DNA of 64,000 nt from positions 1 to 64,000 of IMG/VR virus record IMGVR_UViG_3300005095_000015; one strand, written 5' to 3'. The notes beneath the pieces are model-generated. The model was given only the letters and a program-made list of their open reading frames with translations. It was not told the DNA's origin and ran no database searches. Source of the DNA: a virus. Position numbers and translations under genes: made by a program. Shown one piece after another: positions 3,780-21,471 of this stretch. Positions within the stretch are counted from its first letter, which is position 1. Each line of letters opens with the position of its first letter.

Positions 3780-3808
3780 TTTCATCTCTAAGTGGAATTG
3801 GTTATAAT
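3780..3808 (+). promoter_or_regulatory. phage promoter, motif A copy 1
   Basis: TTTCATCTCTAAG-N10-TATAAT. Confidence 0.8.
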
Positions 3809-9009: not shown

Positions 9010-9038
9010 TTTCATCTCTAAGCTAGGTTTGCTATAAT
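9010..9038 (+). promoter_or_regulatory. phage promoter, motif A copy 2
   Basis: TTTCATCTCTAAG-N10-TATAAT with extended -10 TG. Confidence 0.8.
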
Positions 9039-9314: not shown

Positions 9315-10217
9315 ATGATCCTTTTAGTTGATGGCAACAGTGTAGGTTGGACGGTATGGCATGCTTTGCCTAAGTCGATTAAGGAATCAGATGATATGGG
9401 CTTGGTTTGCGGTGTATGGAGGCATGCTTTCCTTACCAAACTTATAAAGCTGGTGAAGAAGATTGGGAATGGTAGAGCGGTGTATACATTAGTTGTATGG
9501 GATGGTAAGAAAGGAGCTAAAAATAGAAGGGTTTTGTGTGAGCAGTACAAAAAGAAAAGATCCGAGGAAAGGAGAAAGGCAAAGGAAAGGAAGGACGATG
9601 TAAATCTAAGATATTTTGAAGCAGTGAAGATTTTTAAGAAAATGCTTAAAGAGACGCAGACAGGGCAGAAGCTTTTTATCAGGATTGACGAACTGGAAGC
9701 AGATGATTCCATAGCGGCTTTGTGTGTAGTAACTGATCCTGATACGCCGGTTGTTGTCTACAGTGGTGATATGGATTTGCTTCAGTTGCTTCAGTATAAA
9801 GGGGTAAGGGTTATTGCGCCTAGAGATGATAAGGAGTGGGATGCTCAAAGAGTTATGACAAGGTTTTGGGTAAAGCCTGAATACCTTTGGGTGTATAAAG
9901 CTGTAGTAGGTGATCCTTCAGATGAGTGGGTGGGGATTAAAGGTGTGGGTGAGAAGAAGTTTAAAAAGGTGATACAGGAGAAAGGTATCCACGGGGTATT
10001 CAAAGAATGGCAGGATAGGGAGGAGTTTAAGCTTGGTGAGAAGCTTTGTAAGTTGCCTGCAGAGTGGTTGTTGGAGCAAGTGTTTGGTGGAGCCTGGGAA
10101 TCAGTGTTTTTAGAAATGTTAGACAACTTTCTACAGGTGGAGTTAGATCCAGCAGAGATTGCTTTAGCTCTTGACTTGAGAAAACTTTCCACAGCCGATT
10201 TGCAATATCTTATGTAG
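9315..10217 (+). CDS. 5'-3' exonuclease / T4 RNase H-like flap endonuclease
   Basis: LLVDGN, VWDG, EADD, SGDMD, H3TH motif GDPSDEWVGIKGVGEK. Confidence 0.88.
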   Translation: MILLVDGNSVGWTVWHALPKSIKESDDMGLVCGVWRHAFLTKLIKLVKKIGNGRAVYTLVVWDGKKGAKNRRVLCEQYKKKRSEERRKAKERKDDVNLRYFEAVKIFKKMLKETQTGQKLFIRIDELEADDSIAALCVVTDPDTPVVVYSGDMDLLQLLQYKGVRVIAPRDDKEWDAQRVMTRFWVKPEYLWVYKAVVGDPSDEWVGIKGVGEKKFKKVIQEKGIHGVFKEWQDREEFKLGEKLCKLPAEWLLEQVFGGAWESVFLEMLDNFLQVELDPAEIALALDLRKLSTADLQYLM

Positions 10218-10482
10218 GAGAGTGTAATGTTTAATCTCAAGGTTTATTGTACTTTGTATGATGGTAAAGTGAAGATTGTCGAGTACCATCCACTTATTAC
10301 TAGAACCTTTCCTACAAGGAAAGAGTTACAAGACTACTTAGAGATGTGTTTTGCAGAAGCTTGCGATCAGGTCAAGTTTGAACAAGGAACTTATCAAGTT
10401 GAGTGTGACTATCCTATACCTATGCAGGACAGAAAAATCAAAGTGAAATACAAGTTCACTATAACGGAGGAGGGCAAGAAGT

Positions 10483-12609
10483 ATGGAAAAAGTAGCAGCC
10501 GAATTCCAAGTAAAAAAGAGGAACGGAAGCATTGTCTCTTTCGATTACTGGAGAATCTACCACGCCGTTAAAAAGGCTTTTAACTCAGTAAATCTCAATT
10601 CTTACTTATCTCCTCAGCAGGAACATGAAGTAAAGTCCGTAGCTGACACAGTTTTTACTAAGCTTTATTCCGAGTTTTTTAAGTATGGCTCAATTCCTCA
10701 TGTGGAACGGATTCAGGACATAGTTGAGACAACCTTGATGGAGAAAGGATTTCCCGAGGTTGCCAAGGCTTACATACTTTACCGTGAAAAGAGAAGACAG
10801 GCAAGAGAGATTAGTGAAGCTTTAGTGGACGGAATAAATCTTATAGATGATTATTTGGAAGAGGAAGATTGGAGAGTAAGAGAAAACTCAAATATGACTT
10901 ATTCACTACAAGGACTTAACTTTCATGTATCTTCTTCTATTGTAGCTCGCTATTGGCTTACCAAGATATATCCAAAGGAGGTGGCGGAGGGTCATCAGAA
11001 TGGTGATTTTCACATACATGATTTGGGCTGTTTATCAGCTTATTGTGTGGGTTGGGATTTGTATGATCTGCTTCTTAGGGGTTTTGGCGGTGTTAGAGGA
11101 AAGATAGAAAGTAAACCAGCTAAGCATTTTAGAAGTGCTTTGGGTCAGGTAGTTAATTTCTTTTTCAGTCTTCAAGGAGAAGCAGCGGGGGCTCAAGCAT
11201 TTTCTAATTTTGACACTTTACTTGCTCCTTTCATTCGCTATGATAAATTGACTTATCCTGAAGTAAAGCAAGCACTGCAAGAATTTCTTTTCAACATGAA
11301 TGTACCTACGAGAGTCGGGTTCCAGACACCTTTCACGAATCTCACATTTGATCTTAAACCTTCCTCTATTTATGCTAATATGGCTGTTATTGTAGGAGGG
11401 CAGGCTAAGGATGAGACTTATGCTGAGTTTTGTGAGGAAGTGATAATGATAAATCGTGCCTTTTGTGAGCTTATGATGGAAGGTGATGCGAAGGGCAGGA
11501 TCTTCACCTTTCCAATCCCGACCTATAACATTACGAAGGACTTTGATTGGGACAATTCTGAGTACACACCTCTTTGGGAAATGACGAGAAAGTACGGCAT
11601 TCCTTACTTTGCTAATTATGTGAATTCTGATATGGATCCAGCGGATGCTATGAGTATGTGCTGCAGGTTGAGACTTGATAAGAGAGAGATACAGAAAAGG
11701 AACAAAACGCTTCAGAAGAGAGGCGGTGGATTGTTTGCGTCTAACCCTTTGACTGGTTCAATAGGTGTTGTTACTATTAATCTCCCTCGTATAGCCTACT
11801 TATCATCTTCTGAAGATGAATTCTTTGAAAGGCTTACCGAAGCAATGGAGCTTGCTAAGACTTCTTTGGAGATTAAGCGTAAAGTAGTCGAGGAGCTTAC
11901 CGAAAGAGGTTTATATCCATACTCCAAGGTTTATCTTGAGTCAGTAAAACAAGCAACTGGTAAGTATTGGACAAACCATTTTTCTACTATAGGTTTGGTA
12001 GGTATGCATGAGATGTGCCTTAACTTTCTCGGTCTACCTATCTATGATCCTGATGCTAAGCAGTTTGCTATAAAAGTGCTTAAGTTTATGAGAGAAAAAA
12101 TTTTGAAGTTTCAAGAGGAAACCGATAATCTTTACAATCTTGAAGCTACTCCTGCAGAAGGTGCAAGTTACAGACTTGCTAAAGTGGATAAGAAAAAATT
12201 TCCTAACATTAAAACATCTGGTACAGATGCTGTACCTTACTATACAAATTCTTGTCATTTACCGGTAGACTACTCTGACGATGTTTTTGAAATATTGACA
12301 CATCAGGATGATCTTCAGGTGCTCTTTACCGGAGGAACCGTCATCCATCTCTATATAGGAGAAGAGATCTACAGTGCTGAGCTTGTAAAGGAAATGGTTA
12401 AGACGATTACTCAAAACTTCCGTTTACCTTACTTTAGTATCACCCCAACCTTCTCTATTTGTCCTGTTCATGGTTACATACCAGGCAAGCATGAGTTTTG
12501 TCCTTATCCACACACAGAGGAAGAGCTTAAGAAGTATGGTATAGAGATTGAGGTTGGGGATAAGTTTTTGAGCAGGACAAGTCCTAATACTTATAAAGTA
12601 AATATGTAG
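10483..12609 (+). CDS. nrdD: anaerobic (class III) ribonucleotide reductase large subunit with ATP cone, lacking the glycyl-radical C-terminus
   Basis: VKKRNG ATP cone, HIHDL, AYCVGW, MCCRL, EATPAE, YYTNS, CPVHGY..CP; no RVxGY motif. Confidence 0.92.
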   Translation: MEKVAAEFQVKKRNGSIVSFDYWRIYHAVKKAFNSVNLNSYLSPQQEHEVKSVADTVFTKLYSEFFKYGSIPHVERIQDIVETTLMEKGFPEVAKAYILYREKRRQAREISEALVDGINLIDDYLEEEDWRVRENSNMTYSLQGLNFHVSSSIVARYWLTKIYPKEVAEGHQNGDFHIHDLGCLSAYCVGWDLYDLLLRGFGGVRGKIESKPAKHFRSALGQVVNFFFSLQGEAAGAQAFSNFDTLLAPFIRYDKLTYPEVKQALQEFLFNMNVPTRVGFQTPFTNLTFDLKPSSIYANMAVIVGGQAKDETYAEFCEEVIMINRAFCELMMEGDAKGRIFTFPIPTYNITKDFDWDNSEYTPLWEMTRKYGIPYFANYVNSDMDPADAMSMCCRLRLDKREIQKRNKTLQKRGGGLFASNPLTGSIGVVTINLPRIAYLSSSEDEFFERLTEAMELAKTSLEIKRKVVEELTERGLYPYSKVYLESVKQATGKYWTNHFSTIGLVGMHEMCLNFLGLPIYDPDAKQFAIKVLKFMREKILKFQEETDNLYNLEATPAEGASYRLAKVDKKKFPNIKTSGTDAVPYYTNSCHLPVDYSDDVFEILTHQDDLQVLFTGGTVIHLYIGEEIYSAELVKEMVKTITQNFRLPYFSITPTFSICPVHGYIPGKHEFCPYPHTEEELKKYGIEIEVGDKFLSRTSPNTYKVNM

Positions 12610-12614
12610 TTTGT

Positions 12615-12643
12615 TTTCATCTCTAAGTTTCTCCGGTTATAAT
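12615..12643 (+). promoter_or_regulatory. phage promoter, motif A copy 3
   Basis: TTTCATCTCTAAG-N10-TATAAT. Confidence 0.8.
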
Positions 12644-12735
12644 ATAATGTGAAGGAAAGCAGTTCAAGGAGGTGAAAGCGGCTATAACAAGAATAGTGGT
12701 TGAAGGGTTGAAAAAGGTTAAGGTAAAGTAAGGAG

Positions 12736-13591
12736 GTGAGAATGCCTTGGTGGAAAATTGTTTGGTGTGTAGGTGGTGTTATAACTTTCTTGATTTTGCT
12801 TGTCTTCTTTTTCTCTTTTTGGAAGGAAGAGCTTCGTTTGAAAGGATATCTAACTTTAGGTGAGATTGTAATCTCTTTGTTCATTGTAGCCTTAGTTTCT
12901 TTTTGTTGGGTTGCTGTACCTGCGGCTTTTCTGTTTTGTTTATCGGTGTATCCAGTATATTGGTTGCTTAGTAAAGTATTTAGTGTGAAGGTAATAACGA
13001 GGAGGAACTAAGGATTGGTAGGGTTAAGATTATAAGAAGGGGGTTTGTTATGAGTAAAGAGTCTAAAGGTTGGATTTGTCCTAAGTGCGGGATTGCTTTG
13101 GCACCGTGGATGAGTTTTTGCCCTTTTTGCTCTCGTATAGGTGAACGAAGAGTTGATGAAGGAGAATCAGTAGTTCAACCTCCTGATCCGAACATCAAGC
13201 CTCCAGAATTTGAAGAAGTTAGTGAGGGCGAAGCTCCCGATCCTTTGGGTTGGGCAGCGAATAAGTTAAGTCTTAAGCGCAAGATTGAAGAAGTTATGGA
13301 CAAGGCTAAGAAGTCGAAGCGCGAAGTAATTTATCGCAGTATTCTTTAAATTGGGGGTAGTCTATGAGCGACTTTCCTTTTGAAACTATAACAAAGGACA
13401 ATGGTGAGTTACTTGTTAAGTTTGACGAAGAGAATGTTAAAAGGTATTTAGATTGGGCAGTGGAAAAGTGGAGAAAGCGTTTGAACGATGCACAGCAGAA
13501 CAAAAGCAAAGTTGGCGAACTAATTGCAAATTGTTATATTGATGCTTTTCTTTCAGTTAAATGTTCTCTGTTTGGGAGGGAATGGTTATGA
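12736..13591 (+). other. three small accessory ORFs: membrane protein 12736-13011, Zn-ribbon protein 13050-13349, hypothetical 13364-13591
   Basis: ORF track; hydrophobic helices; GWICPKC...CPFC. Confidence 0.55.
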
Positions 13592-13791
13592 ATTGGATGA
13601 ATCCTGTTGATATTACTAATCTGTCTCATCCGTTGAATCCTGCCAACCCTGTAGGTTTAGCAATTTACTCAAGGCATGCAAGTAAAGCGTCTAATTGTGC
13701 GGCTTCGAATGATGGAGTCTAGATTATCCTTTTGGTAGTTTTGTTTATGATTGCTATTGGGTTGTTTTTGAAAGTTGCTGATAAGTGGTAA
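13588..13791 (+). pseudogene. small membrane protein gene interrupted by in-frame TAG at 13720-13722
   Basis: MNWMNPVD...NDGV*IILLVVLFMIAIGLFLKVADKW; good SD; transmembrane helix follows the amber codon. Confidence 0.55.
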
Positions 13792-13804
13792 GGAGGAAAA
13801 TCAC

Positions 13805-13987
13805 ATGATACCTACTTACGCCGAGTTTCTTATCAAGTTTAAAGATTTGCTTTACAACTATCCATTGATTGTCATTTTACATGCATTTGAAGATTACCTG
13901 ACCGGTGGAGAGAATGCAGCTAAGCAGGTATTTATTGAGTATGATAAAATTTTAAATACAACTGAAAGGAGGTGTAGTGATGAGTAA
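13805..13987 (+). CDS. hypothetical protein
   Basis: SD AAGGAGG before ATG 13805. Confidence 0.55.
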   Translation: MIPTYAEFLIKFKDLLYNYPLIVILHAFEDYLTGGENAAKQVFIEYDKILNTTERRCSDE

Positions 13988-14135
13988 GAAGGTTGTTGTA
14001 GTACCCTGCGAAGTTTACTCTAGGGTAGTAGGTTATTTTAGACCAGTGCAGAACTGGAACAAAGGCAAGCAGCAGGAGTTCAAGGAGAGGAAGACCGTAA
14101 GGTTAGATTCTTTTAAAAAACAGTTGTCAAAGTAA
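13980..14135 (+). CDS. stand-alone glycyl-radical domain of class III RNR, 51 aa (not in ORF track)
   Basis: MSKKVVVVPCEVYSRVVGYFRPVQNWNKGKQQEFKER matches the canonical NrdD C-terminus; SD AAGGAGGTG. Confidence 0.9.
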   Translation: MSKKVVVVPCEVYSRVVGYFRPVQNWNKGKQQEFKERKTVRLDSFKKQLSK

Positions 14136-14152
14136 ATTAGGAGGGACTAGGT

Positions 14153-15115
14153 ATGATTACTCTTCGTCAGTTTTTAAACCACTCTCGCCCCGCTTTTGAC
14201 AAGCTATTTCAAACAAGAATGGTTTATTCAGCTCCTGATAGTTTGTTACTTTCAGCTTTAGGTGCTCGTATTTGTTATTCAGCAGATCATCCTATCAAAC
14301 TTCTTCGTAAAGATCCCCGTGTAAATTCTTTGGAAGACCGAGTAAAGTTTCTCACTCGTCTTTACCAAGCTAAACATTTCTCAGTCTTCGCTCATTCCCC
14401 ATTCTTTTTTGTAGAACCAGCAGAAAGAAAGCCTTTGATTTTGTTTAAGTTGTGGTTTGTAGATAAAGGGGCAGATAGATACTACTGTGGTAACTTTAGG
14501 CATTTAGCCGAGGCATGCAAGTTTAACAGTTTATCAGCAGAAGCATTCGAGCTTTATTTGAGACATGTTTCTGATTTAGCTCAGGGTGTAGATATTAGTT
14601 TGTGGGTTTCTTGGGAGTTTGATGATGAGCCTACAGTAGTTGAACTTAGTGATTATGGCTATGGTGAAGATTTAGAGAAATCTTGTGTGCTTTGTTTCTA
14701 CATTGATTCTTTTCCTTGGGGTTGGTTTAGTTTTATAATACATGGAGCATCTCGAGTATTTAGCCATCAACTTGTTCGTCATACTTGGTTGAACTTTAGT
14801 CAGAGGAGCCATCGTTATACGAAAGTAGATAGAGTTGTTAAGCCTTGTTTGGCTGAAGACCTTCACTATAGCTTTGACGAAGCTGTATGGCTCTCTATTA
14901 GGACATATCATACTTTGGTTGAACTGGGTACTCCCAAAGAAGACGCTCGCTTTATAGCTCCTACTGGTACAGCTACTACTATCATGGCTTCAGGTCCGCT
15001 CTTTGTTTGGCAAGACTTTGTAGAAAAACGCAATCATCAGCGGGCTCAGTGGGAAATACGAAGATTCGCTCAGATAGTCGATCTTTGCATCAAGAAATGC
15101 TGTCCAGTATTATAG
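14153..15115 (+). CDS. thyX: FAD-dependent thymidylate synthase
   Basis: HFSVFAH, SRVFSHQLVRH..FSQRSHRY, EDARF, AQWEIR. Confidence 0.9.
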   Translation: MITLRQFLNHSRPAFDKLFQTRMVYSAPDSLLLSALGARICYSADHPIKLLRKDPRVNSLEDRVKFLTRLYQAKHFSVFAHSPFFFVEPAERKPLILFKLWFVDKGADRYYCGNFRHLAEACKFNSLSAEAFELYLRHVSDLAQGVDISLWVSWEFDDEPTVVELSDYGYGEDLEKSCVLCFYIDSFPWGWFSFIIHGASRVFSHQLVRHTWLNFSQRSHRYTKVDRVVKPCLAEDLHYSFDEAVWLSIRTYHTLVELGTPKEDARFIAPTGTATTIMASGPLFVWQDFVEKRNHQRAQWEIRRFAQIVDLCIKKCCPVL

Positions 15116-15128
15116 AGGAGGTGAGCTT

Positions 15129-15410
15129 ATGCCTCTTATTAGTTACAGGTGTCCGTACTGCAATGGTAAAGGTTCTTACCAGACTGTGTGTATGTTGTGT
15201 GAAGGTACAGGAAAGTTAGAAGAGAACGGACAAGAGGTGATTTGTTATAATTGCAATGGGAATGGTTACATTGAGCCTAAGTGTGATGTATGCCACGGTA
15301 AAGGCTTTATTGTCATGGATGTGGATGAGCACTTTGTAGATGCAATTGATTTGTATTCGTCCTATGAGGTTTGGGAAGTTTTTAAGATCAAGAAGTCTGA
15401 TTTGCCATAG
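15129..15410 (+). CDS. DnaJ-type zinc finger protein
   Basis: Four CxxCxGxG repeats. Confidence 0.75.
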   Translation: MPLISYRCPYCNGKGSYQTVCMLCEGTGKLEENGQEVICYNCNGNGYIEPKCDVCHGKGFIVMDVDEHFVDAIDLYSSYEVWEVFKIKKSDLP

Positions 15411-15421
15411 GAGGGTTTGAT

Positions 15422-16225
15422 ATGTTAAAGGTGGGAGATAAGGTAAAAGTAAAGACTTTTGAAGAGCTCAGTAAAAATGCTAAGGATGTGCTTGGTGATA
15501 ACAAATTGTTTTTTGGTTTTTCGATTCCGTATCTTACTTCTGAGATGCAAAGGTTTTGTGGTAAAGAAGTGACTATAGCTGCATGCCTGGGGAATCGCTT
15601 GTATTGGATTGAAGAGGATAATCATAGTCATACTTGGCATGAAATGTTTTTTGAATCACCTGAAGTGCTAGCAGAGGAACTAGATGAGGGAGTAAAGAAG
15701 GTGTTGAAAGACATTGTTGATAGATCAGATGTGTGTATAAAGAGCTTTGCTGGGGTTAAGCATGATGAAGGTAAAGCCCGCTTTGACCTCATTCCTCCAG
15801 AACCTCTCTGGGAACTTGCCAGACTTTATACCAAAGGTGCTGAGAAGTACGGAGACAGGAACTGGGAAAAGGGAATGAGATGGGGAAAGGTATTTGCTGC
15901 TATGATGAGACATGCTTGGAAGTGGTGGCAGGGTGAGGAGTATGATCCAGAGGACGGGCAACATCATCTTGTCTCAGTGGCTTGGTGTGCTTTTGCTCTT
16001 TATACTTACTATGTAAGAGGGGTAGGAGAGGATGACAGAGTGAAATCCAGAAAGAATTGCCCTGTCTATGAGCAAAGCAATTTCATTACCCATACTTGGG
16101 CTGATTGTCCTGGCGTATTTTCTATTCCTGATTATGAGGCTGGTGATTTGAAATGTAATGAATGCGGCGCTTCGTTGAGAGGCGAGATAGAGAATTTTGT
16201 TTCATCTCTCAGGTACAGAGGTTAA
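15422..16225 (+). CDS. dATP/dGTP diphosphohydrolase (DUF5664) domain protein with extra N- and C-terminal segments
   Basis: KHDEGKARFDLIP...GAEKYGDRNWEKG...MMRH...DPEDGQHHL. Confidence 0.8.
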   Translation: MLKVGDKVKVKTFEELSKNAKDVLGDNKLFFGFSIPYLTSEMQRFCGKEVTIAACLGNRLYWIEEDNHSHTWHEMFFESPEVLAEELDEGVKKVLKDIVDRSDVCIKSFAGVKHDEGKARFDLIPPEPLWELARLYTKGAEKYGDRNWEKGMRWGKVFAAMMRHAWKWWQGEEYDPEDGQHHLVSVAWCAFALYTYYVRGVGEDDRVKSRKNCPVYEQSNFITHTWADCPGVFSIPDYEAGDLKCNECGASLRGEIENFVSSLRYRG

Positions 16226-16228
16226 AAT
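16200..16228 (+). promoter_or_regulatory. phage promoter, motif A copy 4 (variant)
   Basis: TTTCATCTCTCAG-N10-TAAAAT, same spacing as the other copies. Confidence 0.7.
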
Positions 16229-21442: not shown

Positions 21443-21471
21443 TTTCATCTCTAAGGTGCAAAGGTTATAAT
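21443..21471 (+). promoter_or_regulatory. phage promoter, motif A copy 5
   Basis: TTTCATCTCTAAG-N10-TATAAT. Confidence 0.8.

Follow-up and report, generated by a model that had tools for sequence, protein, structure and literature searches.

To our knowledge, the radical glycine lies on the catalytic polypeptide in all glycyl-radical enzymes (GREs) that have been studied biochemically. Here we describe a phage class III ribonucleotide reductase (RNR), NrdD, in which the barrel and the glycyl-radical loop are encoded by two separate open reading frames (ORFs). The window that was analyzed is the first 64 kb of the 95,675-bp IMG/VR phage record IMGVR_UViG_3300005095_000015, which carries direct terminal repeats (DTRs) and is estimated to be complete. 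From comparison of both ORFs with their cellular and viral relatives, we regard it as quite likely that the phage encodes a functional two-chain class III RNR, that the pair was acquired already split from a Thermodesulfobacteriaceae-type host, and that a cassette was later inserted between the halves.

Single-chain NrdD enzymes that work with NrdG (T. maritima, 4coi/4u3e; phage T4, 1h7a; P. copri, 8p23) share with the phage protein an ATP-cone, a barrel, a double-Cys loop and an RVVGY loop preceded by Zn knuckles, which in the phage protein are predicted. Divided catalytic subunits have been described for other reductases, namely class Ia in Aeh1 (NrdA-a/NrdA-b, with a mobE insertion) and class II in P. 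aeruginosa and Thermus phage phiYS40 (NrdJa/NrdJb), which resemble the arrangement proposed here in that two polypeptides are assembled without splicing; phage nrdD genes interrupted by introns or inteins have also been described (PMC3653736, PMC9669993). Small free proteins with a radical glycine are represented by GrcA/YfiD of E. coli and the phage-encoded Y06I of T4, on which the enzyme's own activase acts (PMC8683613). A 2021 paper considered YfiD and Y06I to be the sole validated spare parts, adding that other GREs may have them (PMC8683613), and a 2026 review names the formate-lyases as the sole GRE class with known spare parts (PMC13450708). Our literature search, which misses most subscription journals, turned up no description of an NrdD divided in this way, with the radical on a chain of its own.

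The phage locus departs from each of these systems. Compared with single-chain NrdD, the break falls in the short linker that joins the second Zn knuckle to the Gly loop, this knuckle reads CPYPH rather than CPxC, the body has gained a tail of ~31 aa and the peptide a Met-led leader, and the phage lacks NrdG. The reductases of Aeh1 and of the NrdJa/NrdJb type belong to other RNR classes and are broken at other points, whereas the small piece in the phage is 51 aa long and carries the radical cofactor itself; in contrast to Aeh1, the DNA between the halves encodes no homing endonuclease. GrcA takes the place of a covalently attached domain, and does so only once oxygen has cleaved the enzyme, whereas the phage body has no radical loop, so that the peptide, unlike GrcA, would be an obligatory subunit. 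The two small proteins have no sequence relationship either: the phage peptide matches PF13597 only (Pfam, E ≤ 0.1) and not the PFL-type Gly_radical family, and its NCBIfam matches are to NrdD models only.

Anatomy of the two-ORF nrdD

The large chain (10483-12609, + strand; 708 aa) combines an ATP-cone (PF03477, aa 9-105) with a class III RNR barrel. It aligns with positions 1-531 of the 562 in the Pfam NRDD model PF13597 (E 3e-179, 597.6 bits against a cut-off of 26.2) and scores 1007 bits with NCBIfam NF006126 (cut-off 548) and 517 bits with TIGR02487. A Shine-Dalgarno sequence (SD), GGAGGAGGG, is located 7 nt upstream, and the C-terminal end reads ...CPVHGYIPGKHEFCPYPH...KVNM, with no RVxGY loop. 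The loop is found, as SRVVGY, in a 51-aa chain encoded at 13980-14135 (+ strand) and led by its own SD, AAAGGAGGTG, at 13966-13975. This small chain, which carries only the loop and a short tail behind it, matches positions 533-560 of PF13597 (E 2.5e-10) and 551-580 of the 581 in TIGR02487, and the break in the NRDD profile is clean and complementary, with 1-531 on the body and 533-560 on the peptide. An earlier note, made from the letters of the window, had proposed both the NrdD ORF without an RVxGY loop and the separate SD-led ORF, and both are present where it placed them. RVxGY loop and barrel, which a single-polypeptide NrdD carries on one chain, are divided here, the loop lying on a separate ORF 1,370 nt downstream. 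A scan of the whole genome found exactly one NrdD body and one radical peptide.

A profile of 37 small homologues places Gly18 of the small chain (codon 14031-14033) opposite Gly621 in the YMRIVGY motif of T. maritima NrdD (4coi). When the 51-aa peptide alone was used as a query, phmmer searches of the PDB returned spurious PsaK matches only; the 37-homologue profile recovered T. maritima NrdD weakly. Conservation was scored with the phage sequence as the first row of each alignment (31 large chains, 37 small chains). Sixteen peptide positions, including Gly18, are invariant in the 37 small chains, and much of the barrel is invariant in the 31 split bodies. The invariant residues of the body include the double Cys, Cys393-Cys394 (SMCCRLRL; 11659-11664, + strand), which by analogy is likely to be the finger-loop thiyl site of T. 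maritima-type NrdD (PMC9669993). Selection on the peptide was measured over a 34-codon core in comparison with eleven homologues, giving synonymous differences (pS) of 0.8-1.2, which is saturated, and nonsynonymous differences (pN) of 0.05-0.15. Saturated pS with low pN, together with the invariant residues, indicates that purifying selection acts on both halves in this lineage; the invariant residues have been kept in the phage pair.

A metal site is predicted near the end of the large chain, in the Zn-knuckle region C660-x2-H663...C673-x3-H677 (Cys2His2; 12460-12513, + strand). C660, H663, C673 and H677 are each at least 90% conserved in the split family and align with the C..H..CPVC knuckles of T. 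maritima NrdD, where 13 residues lead from C-x3-H...CPVC to Gly621. All four putative ligand positions are on the large chain, which would itself bind Zn. The earlier note had proposed that the Cys of the peptide might complete the Zn site in trans. This is unlikely, as the four putative ligands are on the large chain, Cys10 of the peptide is replaced by Val in eight split Thermodesulfatator-type homologues and by Thr in one, and the same Cys is kept in fused relatives in which the CPxC knuckle is already complete.

The knuckles are followed by a split-type C-terminal tail of ~31 aa (TEEELKKYGIEIEV...; 12514-12606, + strand) that is absent from fused NrdDs. Homologous tails are present in all split Thermodesulfobacteria-type loci: split bodies end CPVHG...FCPYPH plus a tail of ~25-45 aa (TEEELxKYGxExE...), whereas fused relatives read CPxHG...CPxC-(3-5 aa)-PCEVYSRVVGY. 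An AlphaFold2 model of the large chain alone, computed from the 31-sequence alignment, has a mean predicted local distance difference test (pLDDT) score of 79.9, and its best fold matches are the solved class III RNRs 9d3x, 8p2c, 4u3e, 4coi and 1h7b. In this model the split-specific tail forms two short helices, at 679-685 and 693-698.

All genes around the split nrdD are on the + strand, within an array for nucleotide metabolism and replication. The array includes a 5'-3' exonuclease gene (exo, 9315-10217) and, between exo and nrdD, a 114-aa ORF (10227-10571) whose last 89 nt coincide, in a different frame, with the beginning of nrdD, which is either a genuine overlap or a sign that the 114-aa ORF was called too long. 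The next gene after the small chain is thyX, for a flavin-dependent thymidylate synthase (14153-15115; PF02511, E 2e-34).

Split NrdD in cellular genomes and the origin of the phage pair

Small proteins of this kind also occur in cells. A search limited to proteins of 28-90 aa gave 1,098 small PF13597 proteins, in agreement with the earlier note's statement that small NrdD fragments are annotated in some bacteria, and the best of them were 80-90% identical and came from Thermodesulfobacterium, Thermosulfurimonas and Thermodesulfatator. With the phage peptide, 80 cellular loci were fetched and both halves were mapped in each. The break was at the same point in 58 of the 80 loci, which is not a prevalence since the loci were chosen by peptide likeness; the halves were fused in 20, and in two the fetched DNA contained a small ORF but no body. 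Split loci span Thermodesulfobacteriaceae, Aquificota, Anaerolineae and DPANN archaea. Their small ORFs have their own ATG, GTG or TTG start and an SD matching 5-6 of 6 positions, and they are found in any of the three relative frames, even between close relatives, which argues against conserved recoding by frameshifting or read-through.

The cellular two-ORF forms share their break point, tail and leader with the phage pair. They differ in spacing, as the distance from the large-ORF stop to the small-ORF start is mostly -35 to +63 nt in cells, sometimes with nrdG next, whereas the phage has a 1.37-kb promoter-led five-gene cassette in this position; the phage peptide also lacks the CGC/CCGS tail that is common on cellular peptides. 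Exactly one body and one peptide each are present in T. hveragerdense, T. hydrogeniphilum, Thermosulfurimonas dismutans, Thermodesulfatator autotrophicus and a metagenome-assembled genome (MAG) of the Aquificales, the first four being cultured isolates. In two of these five host-type genomes the gene that follows the peptide directly is nrdG, and NrdG in host-type genomes scores above the TIGR02495 cut-off. Heat-loving bacteria thus show the split design widely, and the adjacent two-ORF forms of all four groups are annotated as hypothetical or as NrdD fragments only.

These cellular loci bear directly on the possibility that the cassette, or the split itself, is a chimeric join in a metagenomic contig. 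The IMG/VR record is indeed metagenome-derived, and the cassette ORFs are ORFans. However, the identical split position is seen in more than 50 independent assemblies, isolates included, and both phage halves come from one NrdD lineage; the cassette begins with a promoter-like box that the phage repeats elsewhere (see below) and agrees with its neighbors in strand and SD style, and the contig closes with DTRs. An assembly artefact is therefore exceedingly improbable.

In a tree of the intein-free body (74 rows, 553 columns), the phage sequence falls within an 18-row, all-split clade of Thermodesulfobacteriaceae, Thermosulfidibacter and Aquificales (Shimodaira-Hasegawa-like approximate likelihood ratio test, SH-aLRT, 97), which is nested in a 33-row clade that is also all split (SH-aLRT 95). 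The row nearest to the phage body, L006, is 82% identical to it, and identity to the cellular two-ORF forms is 72-82% for the body and 85-87% for the peptide, the latter figure referring to stand-alone peptides of Thermodesulfobacterium and relatives. Across the whole tree the split state requires at least five changes, which means that this break point came into use on repeated occasions. Probably, the pair was already split when the phage took it from its host, and the cassette parted the halves later.

Cellular split loci show further variation. The large ORFs of L008, L011, L012, L014, L016, L018, L020, L021, L038, L049 and L093 contain one to four intein-size in-frame insertions each, at sites corresponding to phage residues ~237, ~281, ~393 (the catalytic CC loop) and ~560; no such insertion is present in the phage body. 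Cys-rich tails (CGCG[AS], RRACCGS, RRTCGC, SCGC) are common at the ends of small chains in cells, as in L009, L012, L014, L016, L019, L024-L026, L032, L035, L037, L038, L041, L044 and L049, and these tails might serve as a redox shuttle or metal site; peptides of the phage and of Thermodesulfobacterium are without them. In a Nanoarchaeota MAG (L082:8592-9050), the small chain continues into a C-terminal domain that resembles glutaredoxin (PF00462, E 2.6e-4, slightly below the cut-off) and may be a built-in reductant partner. Small radical ORFs that lack an NrdD body in the fetched DNA, from an Elusimicrobiaceae MAG (L084) and a Chloroflexota MAG (L072, near a contig end), may be extra or unlinked cellular copies.

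The cassette between the halves

The 1,370 nt between the halves (12610-13979) contain five SD-led ORFs behind a promoter-like box; five unrelated ORFs and a "motif-A promoter" had been reported here in the earlier note, and all are present. The box, TTTCATCTCTAAG-N10-TATAAT, stands 6 nt past the stop codon of the large chain (12615-12643, + strand), and an exact copy, likewise a putative promoter, heads the unit of exo, the 114-aa ORF and the nrdD large chain (9010-9038, + strand). As a motif it is real: the window contains five copies (3780-3808, 9010-9038, 12615-12643, 16200-16228 and 21443-21471) where 0.01 would be expected, and the genome contains ten, on the + strand every time, the further copies being at 72305, 77432, 82713, 92118 and 95357. 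If the boxes act as promoters, as their sequence suggests, the five in the window would mark off separate units within the early, replication and nucleotide-metabolism region. The proposal that the radical subunit is separately expressed is plausible to this extent, as a repeated promoter-like box directly follows the large gene.

All five cassette ORFs are on the + strand. The first, c1 (12742-13011; 89 aa; SD AAGGAGGTG), is hydrophobic and probably a membrane protein. The second, c2 (13050-13349; 99 aa), is zinc-ribbon-like (CPKC...CPFC), with zinc-ribbon Pfam matches that are sub-threshold only, and is an ORFan whose sole match among 5.8 billion protein clusters is c2 itself. These are followed by c3 (13364-13591; 75 aa) and, in an ATGA overlap with it, the putative c4 (13588-13722; 44 aa), the weakest gene call of the five. 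The last, c5 (13805-13987; 60 aa), overlaps the small chain by 8 nt and holds the small-chain SD in its 3' end. None of c1-c5 belongs to a Pfam or PHROG family, and homologues were found neither in the fetched loci nor in the rest of the phage genome. Pfam and PHROG searches of the five ORFs detected no homing endonuclease (HNH, GIY-YIG, LAGLIDADG), Hint or intein domain, and a search for flanking repeats or a target-site duplication around the cassette yielded short, chance-level repeats only. No convincing terminator was found between the halves; there is one weak + strand candidate inside c1, and counts equal the shuffled expectation.

Could the halves be rejoined, by RNA splicing (a group I or II intron, as in T4 nrdD), protein trans-splicing or translational bypass? 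Introns and inteins often interrupt phage RNR genes, the group I intron of T4 nrdD among them (PMC3653736), and cellular homologues of the phage body contain up to four inteins. However, the intervening DNA is densely coding, with SDs, and a group I or II intron between the halves was rejected when an Rfam scan of 10000-15500 gave no match at E ≤ 1. The extra residues at the junction, the 31-aa tail and the leader of Met plus 8 aa, are like those of cellular two-ORF forms, which need no splicing; together they amount to ~40 aa, much less than a split intein would need, and no Hint domain is present. The cellular inteins are inserted at other sites (about aa 237, 281, 393 and 560), and 1.37 kb far exceeds any known bypass. 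We consider rejoining extremely unlikely. The earlier note's reading of a two-chain RNR with a separately translated radical chain is strengthened, since the split recurs in dozens of independent genomes, purifying selection on the peptide is strong, and neither an intron nor an intein signal was seen.

Separated halves were also encountered elsewhere. In a Caldimicrobium MAG (L024:1577-2065), a DUF2703 gene (E 2e-38) lies between the nrdD halves and overlaps the small-ORF start, which gives the phage cassette a counterpart in cells. A split NrdD was also seen in another phage, G004 (IMGVR_UViG_3300005573_000058, 138,661 bp), which has an intein-bearing body at 106761-110684 and, ~17 kb away among glycosyltransferase-like genes, its peptide at 127475-127564 (L119:5899-6120). 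With the halves unlinked in the window phage, in G004 and in the Caldimicrobium MAG, translational coupling or recoding is no requirement.

Alternatively, the cassette may have broken co-expression and left one or both phage halves as non-functional remnants. The 1.37-kb separation is unique among the loci examined, and no phage relative was found to show that the arrangement persists, both of which would fit such decay. Against it, both ORFs are intact with strong SDs, and the phage retains all positions that are invariant in the 31 large-chain and 37 peptide homologues. The insertion, moreover, lies exactly between stop codon and SD, so that nothing is disrupted, and another phage, G004, keeps its halves 17 kb apart. 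Decay is thus very unlikely. What is peculiar to the phage is probably the cassette between the halves, the split itself coming from the cellular lineage with adjacent ORFs.

Several points nevertheless weigh against a functional pair that was inherited split and parted later. ThyX queries of viral and metagenome contigs yielded no phage relatives that could date the cassette; L093 has only the NrdD pair in common with the phage, and the GenBank phage collection gave distant fused NrdDs only. With no close phage relative at hand, the cassette cannot be dated, nor can selection be measured on the phage's own two ORFs. The cellular lineages also contain a PF02867 RNR, so split NrdD is not provably essential there, and an argument from essentiality was dropped because of its presence in host-type genomes. 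Finally, in the model of the lone large chain, pLDDT values fall below 50 in both the Cys loop (396-422) and the putative Zn region (655-669), which is expected without partner and metal and is uninformative.

Activase, peptide-only phages and possible exchange of the radical chain

As the earlier note had stated, the window contains no NrdG, and profile searches of the complete 95,675-bp DTR genome gave none either, so a host activase would be needed. The sole radical-SAM (S-adenosylmethionine) ORF of the phage, at 83.5-84.3 kb, was considered as a candidate NrdG and rejected, as it is QueE-like and adjoins QueD. These two genes are located outside the window (82778-84264; L005:524-2010), the QueD-like gene having an N-terminal Zn-ribbon extension; judged by their predicted products, they suggest that the phage makes 7-deazaguanine for DNA modification.

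For binding, activation and catalysis we infer the following course. The two chains would be translated independently, and the small chain would dock on the Zn-knuckle and tail region of the large chain, so that the Gly loop enters the barrel beside C393/C394. Host NrdG would then abstract the Gly18 hydrogen, and the complex would reduce ribonucleoside triphosphates during infection under anoxia. A non-covalent version of the enzyme is made plausible by cryo-electron microscopy and hydrogen-deuterium exchange of P. copri NrdD, which showed that the glycyl-radical domain is mobile and can leave the core (PMC11226230).

Phages that carry the radical peptide were examined in 59 viral records with a small NrdD-type radical ORF, the peptide-carrying viral loci being numbered L100-L154. 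Among the 59, a body was also present only in G004 and in three Thermodesulfobacterium-like fragments. At least ten complete or near-complete phage genomes encode an NrdD-type radical peptide (47-190 aa) and no body anywhere in the record. The complete DTR genomes are G002, G003, G005, G006, G007, G053 and G056, and the near-complete ones G041, G055 and G063; G005 has two radical-peptide ORFs, at 31.0 kb and 63.3 kb. No NrdG above family cut-offs was found in the eleven viral records formed by these ten and G004. A subgroup of the orphan phage proteins (L103, L106, L126, L137, L141, L142, L148 and L151; 92-190 aa) has its own CxxC knuckle ~12-15 residues before PCEVYSRVVGY, and these look like a Zn half-ribbon and radical loop behind an unrelated N-terminal region.

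The peptide-only genomes raise the possibility that the free peptide, overproduced from its own promoter, is a spare part that re-arms host or phage bodies damaged by oxygen or dissociated, the phage body being secondary. At least ten complete or near-complete phages with a peptide and neither body nor NrdG point to phages using the peptide with host bodies, and the identity of 85-87% between phage and host-lineage peptides, the promoter-like box upstream of the cassette and peptide, and the precedent of YfiD/GrcA and T4 Y06I for pyruvate formate-lyase (PMC8683613) are consistent with this. On the other hand, the phage keeps an intact, conserved 708-aa body, which would be wasteful if only the peptide mattered, and as a primary role for the peptide we consider re-arming unlikely. 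It is compatible with the two-chain RNR, from which it differs in emphasis alone.

We tentatively propose, within the two-chain RNR, that the 51-aa chain may act as a cartridge, which would be activated free by NrdG, dock, and be replaced after oxygen cleavage, sparing the 708-aa body; phage and host chains might be interchangeable, and phages might boost or re-arm deoxyribonucleotide synthesis by supplying cartridges, the window phage from its own promoter and many others as the peptide alone. If this is true, it would be the first spare part, or obligatory free radical subunit, outside pyruvate formate-lyase.

The phage copy is a compact pair for reconstitution, and its halves, 1.4 kb apart behind a separate box, are a natural control that rules out translational coupling, read-through and frameshifting as the route of cooperation. 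In the databases, radical peptides labeled "hypothetical" or treated as NrdD fragments amount to a systematic annotation problem. For the family as a whole, an NrdD with an always-separate radical loop of 50-60 residues makes it testable how the activase gains access to a buried glycine, whether the radical domain has to move out of the barrel, and whether subunit exchange can repair oxygen damage.

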